Source: Mobula hypostoma
Taxonomy: Eukaryota
Assembly: GCF_963921235.1 (NCBI RefSeq)
Contig: NC_086097.1
Location: 27,096,001-27,160,000, forward strand
Direction of reading: 5' to 3'
Length of the DNA: 64,000 nucleotides
Below, in pieces: positions 1 through 12,769 of this stretch (position 1 is the first letter of the stretch; the number at the start of each line of letters is the position of its first letter). Position numbers and translations under genes: made by a program. The notes beneath the pieces are model-generated. The model saw only the letters and a program-made list of their open reading frames with translations. It did not search any database and was not told where the DNA came from.

Positions 1-519
1 TTTTATTTTACATATTATGGATACAATGAGCTAAAAATTCCCATAATAGGTATAAATAAAGTAGAGGAAGAAACACAAAAAGCTGGAAGAACTCAGCAGG
101 TCAGGCAGCATCTCTGAAAATGAATAAACAGTTGAAGTTTTGGGCCGAGACCCTTTATCAAGACTGTAAAAGGAAGGGAGAGGATACAGAATAAAAAAGA
201 TAGGCAGAAAGAAGGAGGGCTAGCTGGAAGGTGGTAGATGTGGCCAGGTGGGTGGGAAACCCAAAGGGCAGGAGGAGGAATCTGATAGGAGAGGAGAGTG
301 GACCATGGGAGAAAGGGAAGGAGGAGAGGCAACAGGGGGAGTTGATAGGCAGGTGAAGAGAAGGGGTAAGAGGCCAGAGTGGGGAATAGAAAAGGGAAGG
401 GGGAGGGGAAAAATGAAAAAAAAATTACCCGAAGGTGAAATTGATGTTCATGCCATTAGGTTGGTGTTTAATGAAGCAGGGAGTTTACGTAAATGTGTAA
501 TGTTTATATGGAGACACCA

Positions 520-790
520 GGGGGCAGCACAGTAGTGTGGCAATTAGTGGAACACTTTACAGGGCCAGTGAATTGGATTCGGTTTTCCCATTGCTGACTT
601 TAATAAGTTTGTACCTTCTCCCCGTGACTGTGTGGGCTTCCTCCCATATTCCAAAGACATATGGGTAGGATTAGCGAGTTGTGGGCACGCTGTGCCGGAA
701 GCATGGCGACACTAGTGGGCTGTGTTGGTCATCGATACAAATGACACATTTCACTGCATGTTTCGATGCACATGTGACAAACAAAGCCAA
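520..790 (+). mobile_element. tRNA-derived V-SINE (HE1-like)
   Basis: tRNA-like head and V-domain-like TTCTCCCCGTGACTGTGTGGG..TTCCTCCCA..TTCCAAAGAC. Other copies at about 11430-11650(-), 21240-21480(-), 21650-21870(+), 29255-29525(+), 53790-54090(-) and 63190-63470(-). Confidence 0.7.
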
Positions 791-1127
791 TCTTTAAAAG
801 AGACAGCAGATGCAGCAACAAACAATTTGCTGGTGGAACTCAGCGGGTCGAGCAGCATCTGTTGTGGGGGGGTGAGCAACTGTCAACATTTCAGATCAGA
901 ACCTTGCATCTGACGGGAAATGATAAAGTGACAAGGTACCTCGTGGCAAGAGGAAATCTTCTGGGTATCAGCAGGGCACATGAAAACACAGTAGGATAGT
1001 GATTGTCAGTGTAGTTTCATTACGTGCAAGGTCTGTGATGAATATGGAATGTAGGGATTGTAAATTTGGACTCTAATCCAGGTTTATGATGTGTTCTAGT
1101 ATTTAGATCTAGTTCTGGTTGTTTTTT

Positions 1128-1725
1128 AGACCATAAGACCACAAGACATAGAAGCAGAATTAAGCCATCTGGCCCATCGAGTCTGCTCCGCCATTCAATC
1201 ATGGCTGATCCTTTTTTTTAATCTCTTCCTCAACCCCAGTTCCCGGCCTTCTCCCCATAACCTTTGATGCCATGTCCAATCAAGAACCTGTCAATCTCTG
1301 CCTTAAATACACACAACGACCTGGCCTCCACAGCTGCACGTGGCAACAAATTCTACAAATTCACCACCCACTGGCTAAAGTAATTTCTCCATATCTGTTT
1401 TAAATGGACGCCCCTCTATTCTGAGGCTGTGCCCTCTTGTCCTAGACTCCCCCACCATGGGAAACATCCTTTCCAAATCTGTCCAGATCTTTCAACATTC
1501 GAAAGGTTTCAGTGAGATCACCCCTCGCCCTTCTAAATTCCAGCGAGTACAGACCCACAGCCATCAAATGTTCTTCGTATTTCATTCCTGGAATCATCCT
1601 TGTGAACCTCCTCTGGACCCTCTCCAATGCCAGCACATCTTTGCTAAGATGAGTCCAGAACTATTCACAATTCTCAAGGTGAGGCCTCGCTAGTGCCTTA
1701 TAAAGCCTCAGCATCACTTCCCTGC
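1128..1725 (-). mobile_element. CR1 3' fragment
   Basis: LERVQRRFTRMIPG...LYSLEFRR and a (TCTTATGG)n-type tail. Similar fragments at about 7760-8420(-), 9240-9725(+), 16850-17290(+), 51560-52365(+), 55405-56135(-) and 62340-62815(-). Confidence 0.8.
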
Positions 1726-2338
1726 ACAGCTAGTGGCAGCAAGGGACATGAGTGATCAGTGGTATAGACCAATCACAGTCTAATTAAGCAGGGCCAACGG
1801 GGCTGAATACCTTTCAAAGCTTTCAAGGGGAATGGAAACCAACAGATATAAATTTTTCTGTTACTACTTTTGGCTGATTTTTGAATCGAGGTGACCTGCA
1901 GAAAATGAACACTGAGCTGAACTGTACTGAAATATACCTTCTGATTTTGTGTTTTATATTCTGTGTTTTTTCTCTTTTTTTGTTGCCATTTGCACATGGG
2001 GGGGTATTTGATATTCAATGTTTTTGTTTAAGCGAGTTGATTCAATGGTTCTTTATTTTGTGACTGCCTGGGGGGAGGACAAATTTCAGAGTTGTATACT
2101 GTGATAATAAATGTACTTTGAAACTGTGTGGATTGCAGTCTGCAGAATACAGTGGTACTGGGTTGCATTGGTGTCAGGGTTACAGTCGGTGCATGACTGC
2201 AGCGATGCTGGGAGTGACGAGATGCATTGTTAGTGGGTTTGCAGAGGATGCGACTGATGCATTGGTTTCAGCAGTGCAGGGCTGGCGGCGAGGCAGCAAT
2301 AGCGCAGGCTCGGAGTGAGGGCGGAAGCTGAGACTCAC

Positions 2339-2509
2339 ACTGGTTGCAGTTGACTGTTAGGTTGTCGAAGCCTCGGAAGACGGCCTCGCACGTTCCACAC
2401 CGGTTGAGGTGGCAGGTCACGTACTCGTTGTACTTGCAGCTGGCGTCCTCGCACACCTCGTCAAACTCACAGTTTTCCCGGGCAGGAGAGGCATCGGGGC
2501 ACTCGTCAT
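2339..2509 (-). CDS. Exon encoding an 8-cysteine extracellular module
   Basis: ccctcctttggtAG acceptor, T|GTGAGT donor; 171 nt, symmetrical phase 1-1. DECPDASPARENCEFDEVCEDASCKYNEYVTCHLNRCGTCEAVFRGFDNLTVNCNQ. CpG-rich relative to flanks; NLT sequon. Confidence 0.8.
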
Positions 2510-3766
2510 CTACCAAAGGAGGGACGGGGTGAACACCGGCTCCCGGCAACAACCTTCCCCTTCCTTACCACAGAAACGGCTCTGCCCAAGACCGCAACAA
2601 ACAGTCACAGACTAGTGGTTAGTTCCAAACAAGGGACCCTGGCTCATCCAGAAAGACTTACTAATGAAGTACCACTTAATTGTAGCTGCCGTTGTACAGT
2701 GGGGAGTCGGCAGCTGAGTAAAATAACACAAGTAGTAATGACCGGAAGACCTCAAGAAATGGGAGCAGGATCTAGGCCACGCGACCTCTCAAGCCGGTGC
2801 TGCCTTTCACCAAGATCATGACTGACCCAACTTTTCTTAAGTTCACACTCTAATTCGGAATCCCTTGCCAATTAGAAACCTATCCGTGTCAGCTTTGAAT
2901 ATGTTCAAAGATTCACCCGCACAGGAATTCCAGAGACAGACAACTCCTTAAAGAAGGAAATCTTCACTTCCTGGTCTAAAATGAGCACCAACACTCCAAG
3001 ACCATGCCCTCTGGTCCTAAACTTTCCATCAGTGGGGAAACACCCCCTCACCATTGACCTTGATAAGCTGCCAAGGATCTAATGTTTCTACGAAAACACC
3101 TCTCGTTCTCCTGCAACTCGGAGATTGCAGACCGGACTGTGCATAGAACATCGAACAGTATATTACAGCCAGGACAGGCCTGTCAGCCCACGGTGTTGTG
3201 CCGACCTTTTAAATCAGCTAACCCTTCCCTCCTACATTTTTCTATCTTCCATGTGCCTATCTAAGAGTTTCTTAAATGCTCTAATGCACAAGGGGGCTCC
3301 ACACACCCACCACTCTTTGTGTAAAGGACTTACCTCTGACATCTCCCCTATACTTCCCTCCAATCATCTTAAAATTATGCCCCCCCCAGAGAAAATCTCT
3401 GGCTGTCCACTCTGTCTAAGCCTCTATCAAATCACCTCTCACCCTCCTTCACTCCAAACAGAAAGCCCTCGCTCACTCAACACATCCTCACAAGACATGC
3501 TCTCTAATCCAAGCAGCATCCTGGTAAATCTCTGCACCCTCTCTAAAGCTTCCTTAAATGAGGTGCCCAGAACTGAACACAATACGCTCTGGGTGTTCCA
3601 GCTTGTTCCATTTTCCCTTGTAAGGTTTTCTCTCCAAAGCTGTTGTCATCCTAGCATAGCTCCTCTCCCATAACATTGCCTTCCCTTAAGGCCATCACAA
3701 CAGCACAGCGTACCACTGGTTCTCCCTGGGTCGCAAACACCTGACTTGTGTTCATTCTGTACATAC

Positions 3767-3829
3767 GAGTGTGTGCTTGGGAGACTAGCGGGACAGATCT
3801 GCCAGCTGCTGCGGGTCTGAAGGCATCTT
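3767..3829 (-). CDS. Possible second exon (linker) of the same secreted-protein gene
   Basis: ttctctcctggcAG acceptor, C|GTATGT donor; 63 nt, phase 1-1, open frame (E)DAFRPAAAGRSVPLVSQAHT. No homology evidence. Confidence 0.4.
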
Positions 3830-3999
3830 CTGCCAGGAGAGAACTGAGTTCATGGTTGCATTTCTGACAAGAACTGTTCCAGTTACGAATAGTTCTTAGG
3901 AACAGAACCTTACAGTGACCTGGGAAGGGACGTGTATTCTAGATTTGACTAATCACTTAGAGTGAATTAAAAATGCTATCGTTATTGTTGGCCGAATCC

Positions 4000-4770
4000 C
4001 AGAGGGTGATGAGGGAGATCGACCGGCTGGTTGAATGGGGTCCCAGAACAACCTGGCACTCAGTGTCAGTAAGCCCAAGGAGCTGATTGCGGACTCCAGG
4101 AAGGGGAATTCGGGAGAATGAGCACTGGTCCTTATCGAGGGATCAGCAGTGGAGAGAGTGAGCAGCTACAAGTTCCCGGGTGTCAACATCTTAGAGAGTC
4201 TACCCCCGGTCCAACACATTGATACAGTTGAGCAAGAAGTCATGCCAGCAGCCGTATTTCATTGGGGTTTTGAGGAGATTTGGTGTGTCACCAGTGTACA
4301 AGAGAGCACTCTGACTGGTTGCATTGCAGCCTCGTAGGGAGGCACCAGTGCATATGATCAGGAAAAGCTCCATAAGGTTGTAAACTCAGCCAGCTCCATC
4401 ACGGTACTAGCCTCCCTGCCATTGAGGACATCTTCAAAAGGAGATGCCTTAAGGAGGCATCCATCACTGGGATCCTCACCACCCAGGACACGCCATCTTC
4501 CCCTTACCACCATTGGGGAGGAGGTTCGGGAGCCTGAAGACGTACACTCAATGTTTTGGGAGCAGCTTCTTCTCCTCTGCCATCAGATTTCTGAACAGTC
4601 CATTAATCCATGAACACTACCATGCTATTTTGCTCTCTGTTTGCACTATTTATTGATTTTCTTACAGTACATATTTCTTATTTATAGAATGTTTTCAATG
4701 TATTGCTGCTGCAAAACCACAACATTTCACAACATACGTTACTGATAGTGAACCTGATTCTGCTCCTATT
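4000..4770 (+). mobile_element. Old Rex1/Babar-type LINE 3' fragment
   Basis: ERVSSYKFPGVNI and a 3' UTR shared with the other Rex1-like copies. Similar fragments at about 12085-12600, 22430-23140, 31225-31935, 32790-33460 and 60690-61520. Confidence 0.7.
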
Positions 4771-5059
4771 CCTGGAAATACCGAGAAGGACAAACGGTTT
4801 CCATGGCGAAGAGTAATCAACTCTCCGTCAAAGCCTCTGGTCAAATACATTAACCTTGTTTCCCTCTGCATGCATGCTGCCTGACCTGCCAAGTGCTCTT
4901 GTCTGCAACAGCATTTCTGTTACAAAGTACAGTCCGGACCCTAAGGCCCATGAGTTAGTGCTAACCTTTTAACCTTCTCCGAGACCATTTAACTCTTCCC
5001 TCCCACATAGTCCTCCATTTTTTCTTTCATCCATGTGCTTGTCTAACAGTCTCTAATGT

Positions 5060-7500
5060 AACTGACAGGTTACACTTGAACCCGAGGGGGACCAATATCT
5101 TTACGGGCAGGTTTGCTAGAGCTGTTGGGGAGGGTTTAAACTAACTTGGCAGGGAGATGGGAACTATGGTGATAGGGCTGAGGCTGGGGCAGTTGGTATA
5201 CAAGTACGAGGGGTGATTAATAAGTTTGTGGCCTAAGATAGAAGGAGTCAATTTTAGAAAACCTAGCACATTTATTTTTCGCATAGTCTCCTCCTACATT
5301 TACACTCTTAGTCCAGCGGCTGTGGAGCATACGGATCCCTTCTTTGTAGAAGTCGGTGTCTTGGACCTCCAGAAAGTGGTCCACAGCAGGGGTGATTGAA
5401 AAGTTTGTGGCCTAAGGTAGAAGGAGATGAGTTATTAACTTCAAACTTTCTGCATAATCACTCAAAGAGTTGAACTGCATGTGCATGTAATGAGAGCTGT
5501 ATAACTCATCTCCTTCCACCTTAGGCCACTAACTTATCAATCGCCCCTCGTAAATGCAGTGTGTAGTGAGACTGAGAGGAGTGACTGGCAGATGATTGGT
5601 CAAATTTGCAGTCAGTGGGATGAATTGAAGTGTAACATGGGGGCAAAATTGAAAAGCGTGATGAATACAAGACTAGTGGTGTTATACCTGAATGCACACA
5701 GCAGATGATCTTGTAGCGCAGTTAGAGATTGGTATCGTTGATCCTTTGAACCTTTAACCTTCATCAGGGATTGTGGGCGCCCATGAGTCATGTCTGAAAG
5801 ATCATACTTGGGAGCTTAAAATCCAAGGATACGCATTTTATCGATAGGACAGGCAGGTAGGCAAAGGGGGTAGGGTGGCTTTGTTGGTAAAAAAAAAATG
5901 AAATCAAATCCTTAAAAAGAGGCGACCTAGGATTGAAAGGTGTAGAACCCTTATGGGTAGAGTTATGTAACTGCAAGGGTAAAAAGGCCCCGATGGGTGT
6001 TATATACAGGCCTCCAAAAAGCAGCCAGGATGTGGGATATAAATTACAACAGGAGATAGAAAAGGAATGTAAAAATGGCAATGTTATGACAGTCATGGGG
6101 ATTTCAATATGCAGTAGATTGGGAAAATCAAGATGATGTTGGATCATGAGAGAATATTTGTAGAATGCTTACAAGATGGCTTTTTAGAGCAGCTTATGGT
6201 TGGGCCCACTAGATGAAAAGCAATTCTGTACAGGGTCAGGAGAGGGAAAGACCAGAGATTGACCAGAGATTTTGATGGAAGGTTAATCCCTTTTCTCCAT
6301 GGAAACTGTTTGTTCTGCTAGACATCTCCAGGAATAGAATCAGAATCAGGTTTATTATCACTAACAAGAGAAAATCTTCAGATGCTGGAAATCCGAGCAA
6401 CAGACACAAAATTCTGGAGGAACTCAGCAGGCCAGGCAGCATCAATGGAAAAAAGTAAGTCAACGTTTCAGACTGAAACACTTCAGCAGGAGTCCAGCCA
6501 AAGGGTTTCCGCCCAAAAGGTCAACTGTACTTTTTTTCCATAGATGCTGATTTCCCCCAGCATTTTCTGTGTGTTGCTCTGTAAAGGATGCTGCGTGATG
6601 AACCTGATTGAATTAGTAAAGGAACCCTTAGGATGCAGTGATCATAATATGATAGAATTTATGCTGCAATTTGACAGGGAGAAGATAAAGTCAGATATAT
6701 CAGTATCACAGTGGAGTAAAGACTATTACAGAGGTATCTGAGAGGAGCTGGTCAAGGCTGAGTGAAAGGGAACACTAGCACAGATGACGGCAGAACAGCA
6801 ATGGTTGGAGTTTCTGGGAGCAATTCAGAAAGTGCAGGACGGATACATCGCAAGATGAAGAGTATTCTAAAGGGAGGATGAGGAAATTGTGGCTGACAAG
6901 GGAAGCATAAAAAGAAGAGAGCCGATAATATAGCAAAAATTAGTGGAAAGTTAGAGGATTGAGAACCTTTTAAAAACCAACAGAAGGCAACTAAAAAGCC
7001 ATAAGGAGAGAAAAAATGAAATATGAAGGAAAGCCAGCCAATAAAATGAAAGTGGACACCAAAAGTTTTTCTCAGATATATAAAAAGTCAAAGAGGCGAG
7101 AGTGAGTATTGGACCACTGGAAAATAATAGAGGTAGAGGTAGAGGTAGAAAATAGAGAGGTAGTAATGGGAGACAAAGAAATGGTGAATGAATTTAATAA
7201 TATTTTGCATCAATTTTCACTGTGGAAGACCCTAGCAGTATGGAAGAAATTTGAGAGTGTCAGGGGGCAGAAGTGAGTGTGGTTGGTATTACTAAGGAGA
7301 AAGTGCTTGAAAAGCTGAAGATTCTGAAGGTGGATAAGTCACCTGGGCCAGGTGGATTACACGCCGGAGCTCCGAAAGAGGTAGCTGAAGCAATTGTGGA
7401 GTAATGATCTTTTAAGAATCACTAGATTCTGGAATGGTTGCAGAGGACTAGAAAATTGTGAATGCCACTCCACTCTTTAAAAAGGGAGGCAGAAGAAAGG
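5060..7500 (+). mobile_element. Degraded long CR1 LINE (ORF1 esterase C-terminus, ORF2 endonuclease, start of RT), interrupted by other elements
   Basis: DRLHLNPRGTNIFTGRFARAVGEGLN* (SGNH-like ORF1 end, about 5064-5144). GVIYRPP, LGCSDHNMIEF, DKSPGP and ATPLFKKG motifs with many stops and frameshifts. Confidence 0.8.
5207..5550. mobile_element. Mariner-derived MITE with TA target-site duplication
   Basis: TA|CGAGGGGTGATTAATAAGTTTGTGGCCTAAG ... CTTAGGCCACTAACTTATCAATCGCCCCTCG|TA. Internal minus-strand remnant FLEVQDTDFYKEGIRMLHSRWTKSVNVGGDY resembles the mariner transposase C-terminus. Confidence 0.9.
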
Positions 7501-8821
7501 AAATTATATTTCCCTTCATTCCCACTCTTTGCCTCCTGCCAGTCAGCCAATCTTCTATCCATGCTAGTATCTTTGCTGTAATACCAGGGAGGAGGCAGGA
7601 GAATGGGATTGAGAGGGAGAATAAATTAGCCATGATGGAATGGCAGAGCATACTTGACAGGCTGAATGGCCTAATTCTGCTCCTATGTCTTACGACTCTA
7701 CCACCACACCTGGCAGTGTGTTCCAGGCACCCACCACTGTAAAAACTCTATCTCCAACATAAAACATAGGAGAAGAATTAGGCCATTCAGCCCATCAAGT
7801 CTGCTCCGCCCTTCCACCATGGCTGATCCTAGATCCCACTCAACCCCATACACCTGCATTCTCGCCATATCCCTTGATGCCCTGACCGATCAGGAAATGA
7901 TCAACTTCTGCCTTAAATGTACCCATGGACTTGGCCTCCACCACAGTCTGTGGCAGAGTGTTCCACAGATTTACTACTCTCTGGCCAAAGAAATTACTCC
8001 TACCTCCATTCTAAAAGGTTGCCCCCCTCTAGTTCTGGACACCCCCACCATAGGAAACATCCTCTCCACATCCACCCTATCTAGTCCTTTCAACATTCGG
8101 TAGGTTTCGATGCGATACCCCCCACATTCTTCTAAATTGCAGTGGGAAAGCTGCCAAATGCTCCCCGCATGTTAACCCTTTAATTCCCAGAATCATCCTT
8201 GTGAACCTCCTCTGGACTCTCTCCAAAGACAACACACCCTTTCTGAGATATGGGGCCCAAAACTGGTGACAATACTCCACGTGTGGCCTGGCTAGTGTGT
8301 TATAAAGGCTCAGCACTATCTCCTTGTTTTTATATTCTATTCTCCTTGAAATAAATGCCAACATTGCATTTGCCTTCTTTACCAGACTCAACCTGTAAAT
8401 TAACCGTCTGAGAGTCTTGCACAAGGATTCTGGTCCCTCCCTAAACATCCCCCCCCCCCCAAACTTTCCTTCATTCACAAGGACGTTCTCTGGTATTAGC
8501 CATTGCCGCTCTGGGAGAAAGATGCTGTCTGTGCACTCTTTTGATATCTCTCACCTCCAACAAATCCTGCTTCTCTCCATTCTCCATCTCATCCTCCTCC
8601 TCCACTCCAAAAAGGAAAGCCCTTTCCCCATAAGGTGTGATCTCTAATCCAGGCAGTATCCCAGTAAATCTCTGCAGCCTCTCCCATCGGAGAGGTATTT
8701 ATCCAAACATCCTGCTGTTGGATCCTTTTACGTTACACTAGAGCACAGATGAGTTTTGCATTATCCTCTATCAACCACGGAGCTGCAAACCCTGCTAGAG
8801 AAATTAGCACAACGGGCTTAC

Positions 8822-8894
8822 CTGGTATGGCAGAATTTGTGCAGAGACGACCCATCAACACCGCCAGGAGAAGCAGGTAGCTATCTCTGCCCAT
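8822..8894 (-). CDS. First coding exon (signal peptide) of an unidentified secreted-protein gene
   Basis: Good Kozak context gaacATGG. MGRDSYLLLLAVLMGRLCTNSAIP has a hydrophobic core and small residues before a likely cleavage site. Consensus donor CAG|GTAAGC in phase 1; lies in non-repetitive DNA. Confidence 0.7.
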
Positions 8895-10766
8895 GTTCCG
8901 TGCCTCTCGCACTGGAGCTGTGTTAGAAATGGCAAGCCTCCCTGTCTCCTCACAGAGTCTGAGGAGCTAGTGAACAGAATGCCTTCAGCTCCAGGGGAAG
9001 GGTTAAGTCAGCCAGATAAACTCAGCTGGTTTAAGTTTAACAGCCCCAGTTTGTTGTTACACCTGCAAGGCATGAACAATATCAAAAACTGGAAGCAAGC
9101 ACGGGCTGGCAGGTGGGTTTGATAGAAGGTTAGGTATGTTCAGTCGCTCTGGAAAACTTCTACAGATGTACTGAGGCGTTCTAAGCCCCTGCTCAGATCG
9201 CACTTTAGGGTACAATACCCAAGAGGAGCTGGGATTGGATAAAGTCCAGAGGTTGTTTATGAAAATGATCCCAGGAATGAAAGGGTTAAAGTATGAAGAG
9301 CATCTGATGACTCTGGGTCTGTACTCGCTGGAGTTTATAAGAATGGAGTGGGGGAGACCTCATTGAAACCTGTCGAATATTGAAACGCCTAGAAAGAGTG
9401 GACGTGATGAGAATGTTTTCTATAGTGCGGGAGTGCGGGACCAGCAGGCGTAGCCTCAGAATAGAACAGAGATGAGGAGGAATTTTGACAGCCAGAAGAT
9501 GGCAAATCAATGGAATTAATTGCAACAGACTGCTGTGGAGGGCAAGTCATTGGGTATATTTAAAGCGGAGCTTGATAGGTTCTTGATTAGTAAGAACATC
9601 GAAGGTTATAGGGAGAAGGCACGAGAATGGGGTTGAGGGGGAAAATAAATCAGCCCTGATCAAATAGCACAGCAGATTGGATGGATGAATGGCCCAATTC
9701 TGCCCCTTTGTCTTAGGGTCTTATAGCTGTCCTGACAGGTTGCATCATGGTCTGCGACAGCAATCTGGATGTTCAGGAATGCATGAAACTGCAGAGCAGG
9801 GACTCAGCCCAATACATCACAGGCACATCCCTCCCTGCCGTCAGCAGTACCTATAGGACGTTTAGCCTCAAGAAGGCAGCATCCATTATCAAAGATCCCT
9901 ACCATCTGGGCAATGCCATCTTCTCACAGCTACCATAGAGGAGGAGGTACGCCACCTGAGGTCCCACACCACCAGGCCTGTCTTATTGGCCTTCTTTTTG
10001 TGCTGCATCAGATCCGGAGTAACAATTACTTCATTCTCCTTTAGACTTGTGCACTGCAAATGACTTTAAACCAATCTTGAATCTGACTGGTTGTGTCAGC
10101 ACCTGGCATGGAGGTTCGCAAAAAGCCACAGAAGGTTGTAGACTCGGCCAGCTCCATCGTGGACTCTTCCCTCCCCACCATCGAGGAGACCTTCAAGAAG
10201 CCGTGTCTCAGGGAGGCAGAATCAAACGTTAAAGACTCTCACCATGCGGGACAGGCCCTCTTCTCCTTACTGCCATTAGGGAGAAGGTACTGCAGTGAAG
10301 ACCCACACTCAACTACTTCTTCCCTTCCACGGTCAGGTTTCTGAATGGTTCATAAACCCATGACCACCACCCTGTTAGTCGTCTTTATTTATTGGTAACT
10401 TAACAGTAGTTTTTGTCTTGCACTTGCTGCTGCTGCAAAACAACAAATTTCACGCCGTCAGTAATAACAAACTCGATTGTGATGAGGAAGGAAGCTGAAG
10501 GTACTGGCTGTCAGAGAGCTCACAGGAAAGGAACAAAGGGCTTGTTCTTGGCACAGTGGCATCGCTACTGCATGGATCACAGTCGAGCCCAAGTTATGTA
10601 CAACATACAGAGGTTAAGTAAGTGCAAACAAGGCTTCCTTTTTCAAACTCTCAGACGTCCAGCACACCCACAAGCAACGCAAGTTATCTGGGACGTCAGG
10701 CACTTTGTGGAGAAAGTTTAATACTTAACACACAAGCAGATAACAGCAGTTAATGCAAAATAAATA

Positions 10767-11168: not shown

Positions 11169-11294
11169 TTAATCTTCCATGAGAATTTCCAGCTCCTCTA
11201 GGGGAACCCGGATCCGGATTTCCTTCTCGGTCATCAAGTCGATGATTTCTTGAAGCTGCTCTGGTAACAGTCTGACTGCGTCCAGATACAGGAC
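11169..11294 (-). CDS. NRDE2: NRDE2 last coding exon with TAA stop
   Basis: VLYLDAVRLLPEQLQEIIDLMTEKEIRIRVPLEELEILMED* matches the NRDE2 C-terminus. cctcAG acceptor at 11296-11295. Confidence 0.96.
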   Translation of the reverse strand, partial: VLYLDAVRLLPEQLQEIIDLMTEKEIRIRVPLEELEILMED

Positions 11295-12769
11295 CTGAGG
11301 AAGGAGAGTGGTACTTAGTGATTCCAAGATTCTAGGCTCCTCATTTCCTTACAACACAGGAAGTGGAAATGTGGCCTATCAAGTCTCTGCCAGCTCTCAG
11401 AGCGATCCCATTCCCCATTAACTTTCCCAATTCCCATCGACCCCCCCCCCCAAATTCTACCACCTACCCACACACTAGAGGCAAATTACAGTGGCCAGTT
11501 AACCTACCAATCTGCACGTCTTTGGGATGTGTGAGGAAATTGGAGCACCACACAGTCACAGGGAGAACATGCAACCTTCACACAGACAGCACCCAAGGTC
11601 AGGATCAAACTCGGGGTCACTGGAACTGTGAGGGTGCAGCCACCCTCTCTGTCCCTTTTCTTTCAAAGGGTGTCCTCGTCCCACTGACGGAAGATCGGAG
11701 TGGACTGATGCATCTTCCGTGGCACACCAATAACCTCGCACACAACACCAGTAAGACCAAAGAATAGAGTGTGGAGAACGCAGAACATAAAATGGAACCG
11801 CATTTCGGCCCTCAATGTTGTGCTGACCCTTTAACCTACTTGAAAGATCAATCTAATCATTCTCTCCTATATAGCCTCCATTTTTAGATCATCCTTATGC
11901 CTATCTAAGAGTTTCTTAAATATCCCTAATGTATGAGCCTCTACCACCTCCCCTGGCAGTGCATTCAATGCATCCACCACTCTCTGGGTAAAAAGCTTAC
12001 CCCTGGCATCCCCCTAATACCTTCCTCCAATCACCTTCAAATTACAGCCCTTGTATTAGCCATTTCCACCCTGGAAAAATGTCAAACACACACCAGTCCT
12101 CACTGAAGGGTGAGCAGTGGAAATGGTGAAAAGCTTTAAGTCCTTGAGCATCAACATCTCAGAGAATCTACTCTGGGTTCAACACACTGACACAATTACA
12201 AGGAAGGCATGCTGGCAGCCTTCCTTAATTACGAGTTTGAGGAGATTTGATATGCCACCAAAGACTCCAGCAGATTTCTAGAGATGTCCCACAGAGAGCA
12301 TTCCGCCCGACTGCATCACCTCTGGTGTGGAGGCTCCAATGCACAAGACCGAAGGAGGCTAGACTCAGCCTGCTCTATCATGGGCACAACTCTCCAAACC
12401 ATCAAAGACATCTTCAAAGGGTGCTGCTTCAGGAAGGTGGAATCCATCACGAAGGACCCTCACCACTCAGGACATGCCCTCTTCTCATTGCTACCATTGG
12501 GGATGAGGGACAGGAGGCTGAAGACCTAGACACAACTATTCAGGAGCAGATTCCCCCTCTCTGCCTTCAGATTTCTGAATAGTCCATGAACACTACCTCA
12601 TTATTCATAGTGTCAAGAAGCACTACAGCACAGAAACAGGCCCTTTGGCCCATCTACTCCATGCCAGATTGTAATTCTGCCTAGTTCCATTGAACTGCTT
12701 CTGGAGCATAACTCTCCATTCCCCTCACAGCCATGTACCTTTCCAAACTTCTCTTAAATATTATAATTG

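Follow-up and report, generated by a model that had tools for sequence, protein, structure and literature searches.

Gene structure at the locus

The window analysed here is a stretch of 64,000 nucleotides of the genome of the ray Mobula hypostoma (contig NC_086097.1, termed C1 below; G000:C1:27096001-27160000); the 60 kb to the left of the window were also analysed. Positions 8894-2339 of the window very probably hold the first two exons of a minus-strand gene that has nine exons, extends over roughly 20 kb, belongs to the EpCAM/Trop2 (TACSTD) family and is a paralogue of canonical EpCAM. The protein P0060 (337 residues), annotated as 'epithelial cell adhesion molecule-like' (hence the name EpCAM-like gene used here), was rebuilt letter for letter from the genomic DNA by one unique set of nine exons, and the exon boundaries given below are the sole solution, found by a script run on the genome DNA, that yields P0060 exactly. 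Exons 3 to 9 (G000:C1:27093964-27084893) were located 2.0 to 11.1 kb left of the window start, on the side where the initial annotation had expected the 3' end to be; their window positions are accordingly negative.

8895-9060, minus strand: 5' untranslated region, minimum extent, from a contig of run X1 (a contig of run X3, from a related organism, aligns to 9199)
8894-8822, minus strand: exon 1, coding part, with start codon and signal peptide; 24 codons and 1 base, ending in phase 1
2510-8821, minus strand: intron 1, 6312 nucleotides, GT-AG, mostly high-copy repeats
2509-2339, minus strand: exon 2, N-terminal module with eight cysteines (8-Cys N-module); 171 nucleotides, phase 1-1, N74-L-T sequon
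-2036 to -2273, minus strand: exon 3, thyroglobulin type-1 (TY) domain, from the P0060 rebuild
-3245 to -3316, minus strand: exon 4, from the P0060 rebuild
-4297 to -4360, minus strand: exon 5, from the P0060 rebuild, with a GC donor
-5684 to -5782, minus strand: exon 6, from the P0060 rebuild
-7799 to -7981, minus strand: exon 7, transmembrane helix, from the P0060 rebuild
-9713 to -9772, minus strand: exon 8, from the P0060 rebuild
-11054 to -11107, minus strand: exon 9, from the P0060 rebuild

The minus-strand ATG at 8894 (context aacATGg) opens the peptide MGRDSYLLLLAVLMGRLCTNSAIP, which ends in phase 1 at 8822 before a GTAAGC donor, is the exact N-terminus of P0059, P0060 and P0063, and is 80% identical to that of the stingray orthologue. 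Exon 2, between a ttggtag acceptor and a GTGAGT donor, encodes DECPDASPARENCEFDEVCEDASCKYNEYVTCHLNRCGTCEAVFRGFDNLTVNCNQ, with the cysteine spacing C-x9-C-x5-C-x4-C-x7-C-x4-C-x2-C-x13-C and an NLT sequon. Both exons had been read correctly in the initial annotation: the signal-peptide exon with its start-codon context and donor is confirmed, and the length, phases, cysteine spacing and sequon of the 171-nucleotide exon agree exactly. Exon 3, about 4.4 kb downstream of exon 2 and joined to it in phase 1 through a split Leu codon (T/TG), encodes a TY domain that is strikingly EpCAM-like. Seven of the introns are GT-AG and one, intron 5, is GC-AG, its donor being ATCACG/gcaagt (L002:5639-5640, left of the window).

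Three annotated isoforms, P0063 (342 residues), P0059 (338 residues) and P0060, all named 'epithelial cell adhesion molecule-like', were found as members of the 90% cluster of a stingray protein, and they differ from each other only at the 3' end of the gene. A TAGCAG tandem acceptor at exon 9 (L003:8940-8950) gives isoforms one Gln apart (EQGQ or EGQ), and read-through of the exon 8 donor (L002:220-290) gives the 342-residue isoform with its altered tail. The gene model is thus not new: public annotation already carries it under a '-like' name, and since identical proteins are annotated there, the initial description of an unidentified gene does not hold.

Domain organization, topology and fold of the product

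The product has the part order signal peptide, 8-Cys N-module, thyroglobulin type-1 domain, EpCAM/Trop-2 C-domain, transmembrane helix and short cytoplasmic tail. It is predicted to be a type I membrane glycoprotein rather than a soluble secreted protein because of its TY domain, its C-domain, its fold matches and the transmembrane stretch and tail that begin in exon 7. Pfam identified Thyroglobulin_1 (PF00086) at residues 86-154 of P0060 with 56.2 bits against a cut-off of 20.6, and EPCAM-Trop-2_C (PF21283) at residues 177-267 with 32.1 bits against a cut-off of 25.9. Exon 7 encodes AAIIIIIALAILTGIAVFVVV; RRRAKED and some 35 further residues come after it, and the hydrophobic N-terminal signal together with this single predicted transmembrane stretch constitutes a type I topology as read from the sequence; the structural model of P0060 has a helix at 280-320. 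A secreted protein, as initially annotated, is contradicted by this helix and the cytoplasmic tail behind it.

Comparisons with solved structures agree with this assignment. The frog orthologue P0005 matches TACSTD2 (7e5n, E 5.8e-37) and EpCAM (6i07, E 3e-29) over nearly its full length. An AlphaFold model of P0060, made from an alignment of 45 sequences of both paralogues, has a mean predicted local distance difference test score (pLDDT) of 69.9, and the top ten Foldseek matches to it are EpCAM/Trop2 chains (6i07, 4mzv, 7e5n, 9pi9, 7pee and 7e5m), with E values of 7.5e-17 to 1.9e-14 and template modelling (TM) scores of 0.73-0.81 normalised to the target. The six TY cysteines are retained. 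An AxxxG motif mediates claudin-7 binding, and the transmembrane helix carries an AxxxG-like pair, A292-x3-G296, with conservation of at least 90% over the 45 sequences of both paralogues. A dibasic GGRR is present in the TY loop of the cartilaginous-fish proteins. Residue 215 of P0060 (exon 6, L002) is an extra, apparently unpaired C-domain cysteine (REICIRL) in the ray and shark proteins examined, and its equivalent is Ser or Val in the sturgeon, coelacanth and frog proteins.

Paralogy with canonical EpCAM

The EpCAM-like gene is a distinct ancient paralogue and not canonical EpCAM, which is present on another contig (C22) of the same genome. The C22 gene encodes a TY exon that is 43% identical to the EpCAM-like TY exon and 99% identical to manta-ray 'epithelial cell adhesion molecule', and its N-domain exon has 108 nucleotides, phases 1-1 and six cysteines, compared with 171 nucleotides, phases 1-1 and eight cysteines in exon 2 of the EpCAM-like gene. 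Intron 1 interrupts an Asp codon (G/AT) right before the first cysteine in either gene, and intron 2 the Leu codon preceding TPKC. Due to this identity of codon and phase at both introns, the two N-domain exons are positional homologues that differ in size by 21 codons. The features surrounding the two loci are as follows.

G000:C22:30832227-30838358: canonical EpCAM, with a 108-nucleotide N-domain exon, a TY exon and a transmembrane exon
C22:30778711-30800347: multi-exon MutS_III matches, MSH2-like, about 32 kb from the C22 EpCAM
C22:30324805-30325761: large MutS exon, MSH6-like, about 0.5 Mb from the C22 EpCAM
C22, 31.53-31.60 Mb: TTC7_N exons, 0.7 Mb from the C22 EpCAM on the side opposite the MutS matches
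C1, 27.56-27.78 Mb: TTC7_N exons of a second TTC7 gene, 0.45 Mb from the EpCAM-like gene
Window 29548-54563, minus strand: NRDE-2 Pfam exons, upstream of the EpCAM-like gene on the same strand
Window 11214-11330, minus strand: the most 3' NRDE2 coding exon found, matched by the NRDE2 portion of the fused model P0052
C1, 12 kb past the 3' end of the EpCAM-like gene: proteasome-ATPase exons, PSMC1-like, convergent

Only about 2 kb separate the NRDE2 exon at 11214-11330 from the transcribed 5' end of the EpCAM-like gene, which follows it on the same strand. A whitefish model, P0052 (580 residues), consists of NRDE-2 sequence fused to an EpCAM-like protein, from which it follows that the tight NRDE2/EpCAM-like tandem has been kept in a teleost, where gene predictors are misled by it.

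In a maximum-likelihood tree, 23 'like' proteins and 16 canonical proteins separate at 100/100. The tree has no outgroup and was midpoint-rooted for drawing only, and tetrapod EpCAM and TACSTD2 were left out. Both clades follow the species tree and each contains cartilaginous and bony fishes; a long lamprey branch attaches to the 'like' clade at its base. By these sequences, the duplication took place before cartilaginous and bony fishes diverged, and probably before lampreys branched off as well.

The EpCAM-like gene is most likely the whole-genome-duplication twin of canonical EpCAM. An old small-scale duplication of EpCAM, either segmental or in tandem with later translocation, is an unlikely origin: few syntenic pairs were tested (TTC7 and EpCAM on both contigs), and the lack of an outgroup and the long lamprey branch leave it some room, but both loci keep the gene order of human 2p21 (TTC7A-EPCAM-MSH2-MSH6) and 14q32 (TTC7B-NRDE2-PSMC1), and a duplication older than the divergence of cartilaginous from bony fishes, and probably than that of lampreys, argues against it. 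The full human orders are TTC7A-CALM2-EPCAM-MSH2-MSH6 at 2p21 and PSMC1-NRDE2-CALM1-TTC7B at 14q32, where PSMC1 and NRDE2 adjoin and no EpCAM-like gene is known between them.

Splicing of intron 1 and the putative linker exon

Four sequencing runs containing exon 2 were found, kept as contigs and aligned to window 1-9200; they are guessed to be RNA, none of the runs listed with exon 2 being registered as such. In record 4 of X1 (440 nucleotides, no mismatches) 2339-2509 is joined directly to 8822-9060, and in record 19 of X3 (1155 nucleotides, from a related organism and a second study) 2339-2509 is joined directly to 8822-9199; record 9 of X2 spans 2339-2509 with 30 further letters from outside window 1-9200. 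The junction of 8822 to 2509, proposed as a check in the initial annotation, is thus found as a direct join in the X1 and X3 contigs. These contigs are best explained as spliced RNA because the 6.3-kb GT-AG intron 1 is absent from them and because the 8-Cys module has only one copy in the genome, at the sensitivity of the genome search; the single copy also makes a retrocopy an unlikely source of them. Intron 1 and the DNA past exon 2 (window 1-8600) consist mostly of high-copy repeats that are abundant in contigs of all four runs, the summed contig depth ranging from thousands to over 100,000 (bins 1-307, 1229-1535, 6141-6447 and 7983-8289 being examples). Exon 2 and the region around 3829-3767 are low-copy.

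The initial annotation had also placed an optional linker exon of 63 nucleotides at 3829-3767 on the minus strand. This segment is open in phase 1-1, with a polypyrimidine/CAG acceptor and a GTATGT donor, all of which would suit a cassette exon that lengthens the protein by 21 residues, placed after the signal peptide and ahead of the N-module. However, such an exon is highly improbable: the linker is absent from all three annotated isoforms and from both contigs that bridge exons 1 and 2 (X1 and X3), no insertion was found in any of 30 orthologue N-termini, in which VP/IP-DDEC directly follows the signal peptide, and comparable chance candidates exist within intron 1. There, 298 open AG..GT phase-1 segments of 30-150 nucleotides were counted; the splice context is good in four, three of which have the donor of the linker. 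The linker region is untouched by any contig among the matches listed, which counts neither way. On these grounds, 3829-3767 is most likely a chance pseudo-exon, and the optional linker is unsupported.

Distribution and conservation

Frog P0005, used in a word-based search, brought up 48 proteins, to nearly all of which the name 'epithelial cell adhesion molecule-like' is given; their sources are amphibians, sturgeon, bichir, gar, eels, bony-tongues, salmonids, lungfish, coelacanth, sharks, rays and lampreys, together with a fragment from alligator. By sequence, the 'like' gene thus persists in lampreys and cartilaginous fishes, in several lineages of ray-finned fishes, and in lobe-finned fishes and amphibians, and it seems to be missing from mammals. 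The sole amniote match is alligator P0056 (228 residues), which lacks the 8-Cys module and in which the transmembrane region is replaced by an unrelated Cys/His-rich sequence; the gene may be decaying in the alligator lineage. The initial annotation had suggested an ancient gene retained in cartilaginous fishes: its antiquity is upheld, but it is no cartilaginous relic, given the orthologues in lampreys, ray-finned and lobe-finned fishes and amphibians.

Two interpretations of the locus have almost nothing left to stand on. A ray orthologue of canonical EPCAM or TACSTD2 mislabelled as '-like' could appeal to those members of this set that go by 'epithelial cell adhesion molecule' in salmonids or by 'TACSTD2-like' in lampreys and conger, but the same genome has canonical EpCAM on C22 beside MutS-family exons, the two clades are apart at 100/100, and TACSTD2 is described as an intronless amniote retrogene (excerpt of PMC10797630), in contrast to the nine exons found here. 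A novel soluble secreted cysteine-rich protein of shuffled modules, kept only in cartilaginous fishes, is equally far-fetched: it accounts for a signal peptide and a phase 1-1 cysteine-rich exon with no Pfam match, but the exons run on into TY, EpCAM C-domain and transmembrane exons that reproduce the annotated protein exactly, and orthologues from many vertebrate lineages are among the 48 proteins listed.

Over matched species pairs, the 'like' protein is by its sequence far more conserved, and slower-evolving, than EpCAM.

Ray and stingray: 'like' 98.2% identical, canonical 83.3%
Ray and sawfish: 'like' 94.4% identical, canonical 83.2%
Ray and catshark: 'like' 88.1% identical, canonical 71.4%
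Ray and sturgeon 'like' 73.5% identical; ray and gar canonical 50.7% (a different fish for each gene)

The N-module and eight-cysteine repeats of invertebrates

The 8-Cys module is conserved in all of the 30 orthologues examined. An exhaustive phmmer search with the 56-residue module identified ten proteins at E values of 0.001 or less. Vertebrate proteins or fragments, 92-363 residues long, account for seven of them, and invertebrate or unnamed repeat proteins, matched at 8.9e-19, 1.0e-07 and 4.0e-04, for three. The invertebrate repeats have the spacing C-x8-C-x4-C-x4-C-x7-C-x4-C-x2-C-x13-C, and the motif C..C.A.F/W...G..V.C is common to them and the vertebrate module. In the rotifer Rotaria sordida, P0007 contains nine tandem copies by pattern and eleven matched stretches by phmmer, and P0069 is a secreted protein of 138 residues with two copies; five copies are present in an EGF protein of the sea cucumber Apostichopus japonicus (P0083) and eight in the unnamed ENA protein P0012. 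P0206 and P0207 also contain the module, and in two proteins it is combined with lustrin-Cys or fn3 domains. The resemblance to an invertebrate 'C..DPC....C.......C..NYCGGC.A.F' module, raised in the initial annotation, is therefore substantiated by the rotifer and sea-cucumber repeats, and by HHalign, which aligned 16 vertebrate modules to 22 invertebrate repeats with a probability of 96% (E 4e-9). The EGF repeats of P0083, used as a control, reached at most 28.7%, reversed copies of the two modules compared at most 1.1%, and no reversed control exceeded 2%.

No Pfam family matched the 56-residue module alone, in keeping with the initial judgement that it is not EGF, WAP, Kazal, Kunitz or thyroglobulin-1, and no Pfam family was found for the invertebrate 8-Cys repeat. 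A search of PDB sequences with the module alone gave zinc-finger noise only (E 0.7-1), and in the ESM Atlas its only match was an unnamed rotifer cluster, with values (0.76 and 0.82) too low to count. The taxonomic range of the module is poorly sampled, a word-based search with the rotifer protein having given only four longer proteins.

Interpretation and significance

Both EpCAM and Trop2 serve as major markers of carcinoma and as drug targets, and epithelial integrity depends on them. No description of an EpCAM-like paralogue between NRDE2 and PSMC1 was found in the literature searched; the annotation name 'epithelial cell adhesion molecule-like' turns up in three papers, by title and abstract two on proteomes and one on RNA-seq. 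The published picture, as given in an excerpt of PMC10797630, counts two members in the family, one intron-containing gene in fishes and no invertebrate relatives. The EpCAM-like gene is best classed as an uncharacterised member of this known family, an old vertebrate paralogue that has seemingly never been studied.

We lean slightly towards a broader reading, in which vertebrates ancestrally had a second intron-containing gene of the EpCAM family, 'EpCAM2', located between NRDE2 and PSMC1, which is the overlooked whole-genome-duplication twin of EPCAM, is under tighter constraint and keeps the full 8-Cys module, so that the 6-Cys N-domain of EpCAM and Trop2 would be a cut-down derivative and the N-terminal block would predate vertebrates. 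A derivation of the 6-Cys N-domain from the 8-Cys module by reduction is proposed from exon homology between the paralogues and not from direct similarity. If this is true, the 6-Cys N-domain of EpCAM and Trop2, a target of therapeutic antibodies, derives from an old metazoan module, and the EpCAM-like gene is a clue to the origin of this odd domain. A third, older family member found from lampreys to frogs also offers a natural comparison for determining which functions of EpCAM are ancestral, a knockout being feasible in Xenopus, and the evolutionary story of the paralogue is modestly interesting in itself.

The function of the EpCAM-like protein may be proposed after its relatives. EpCAM and Trop2 are described as cis-dimers composed of N-domain, TY and C-domain that hold claudins, and matriptase is described as cutting both at an Arg in the TY loop, which destabilises the claudins (excerpt of PMC8508679). 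The EpCAM-like protein might likewise be a cis-dimeric epithelial surface protein, the transmembrane helix of which would associate with claudins and stabilise them; cleavage in the TY loop could regulate it, and the enlarged, nearly invariant N-module could serve as an outward-facing, membrane-distal binding surface. A dimeric claudin partner would fit the retained fold, six TY cysteines, C-domain and A292-x3-G296. By this analogy, it is an even call whether the protein is a dimeric epithelial surface protein that partners claudins, with the N-module as a binding surface.

Several points weigh against the reading developed here. EpCAM_N (PF18635) scores only 16 bits at residues 48-85 of P0060, under its cut-off of 27.5; this family is also unmatched in the canonical ray EpCAM, P0085, and the Pfam model is thus not discriminating here. 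In HHalign, the isolated canonical N-domain gave no significant match to the 8-Cys module (probability 2.2%) or to the invertebrate repeats (2-3%), and because the domain profile match is not significant, the homology of the N-domains of the two paralogues rests on exon position, phase and full-length alignment. The N-module has a pLDDT below 50 within the full P0060 model, and AlphaFold on the module alone (pLDDT 47.5) yielded no fold or disulfide map. The N-module and TY domain together hold 14 cysteines versus 12 in EpCAM and Trop2, and the dibasic GGRR of the TY loop is not kept elsewhere in the 'like' clade. The preference for whole-genome over old local duplication comes from two syntenic paralogue pairs and human map positions, the RNA nature of the four runs is guessed, and the proposed mechanism is drawn wholly by analogy with EpCAM and Trop2 as described in the excerpt of PMC8508679.

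Comparison with known systems

EpCAM (TACSTD1; 4MZV, 6I07) shares with the EpCAM-like gene the order of its parts, the positions and phases of the first two introns, a fold with a TM score of up to 0.81, and an AxxxG-like pair, A292/G296, kept in the transmembrane helix of both. The two differ in that the proteins are only about 29-33% identical, the N exon has 108 nucleotides and six cysteines in EpCAM but 171 nucleotides and eight cysteines in the EpCAM-like gene, and the EpCAM-like TY loop is shorter and the tail different. Their loci also differ, the EpCAM-like gene lying beside NRDE2 and a PSMC1-like gene and canonical EpCAM beside an MSH2-like gene.

Trop2 (TACSTD2; 7PEE, 7E5N) is the best sequence match among solved structures, with domains and fold as in the EpCAM-like protein. 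In contrast to TACSTD2, which the literature describes as a retrogene without introns and of amniote origin (excerpt of PMC10797630; a retrogene also in the excerpt of PMC8508679), the EpCAM-like gene has nine exons and probably predates jawed vertebrates.

The 8-Cys repeat of invertebrates has a cysteine spacing nearly identical to that of the EpCAM-like N-module and significant profile similarity to it. Whereas the invertebrate module forms arrays of 2 to 11 copies, either by themselves or accompanied by EGF, lustrin-Cys or fn3 domains, and was not seen with a TY domain or an EpCAM C-domain among the proteins examined, the vertebrate EpCAM-like gene has a single copy together with both.

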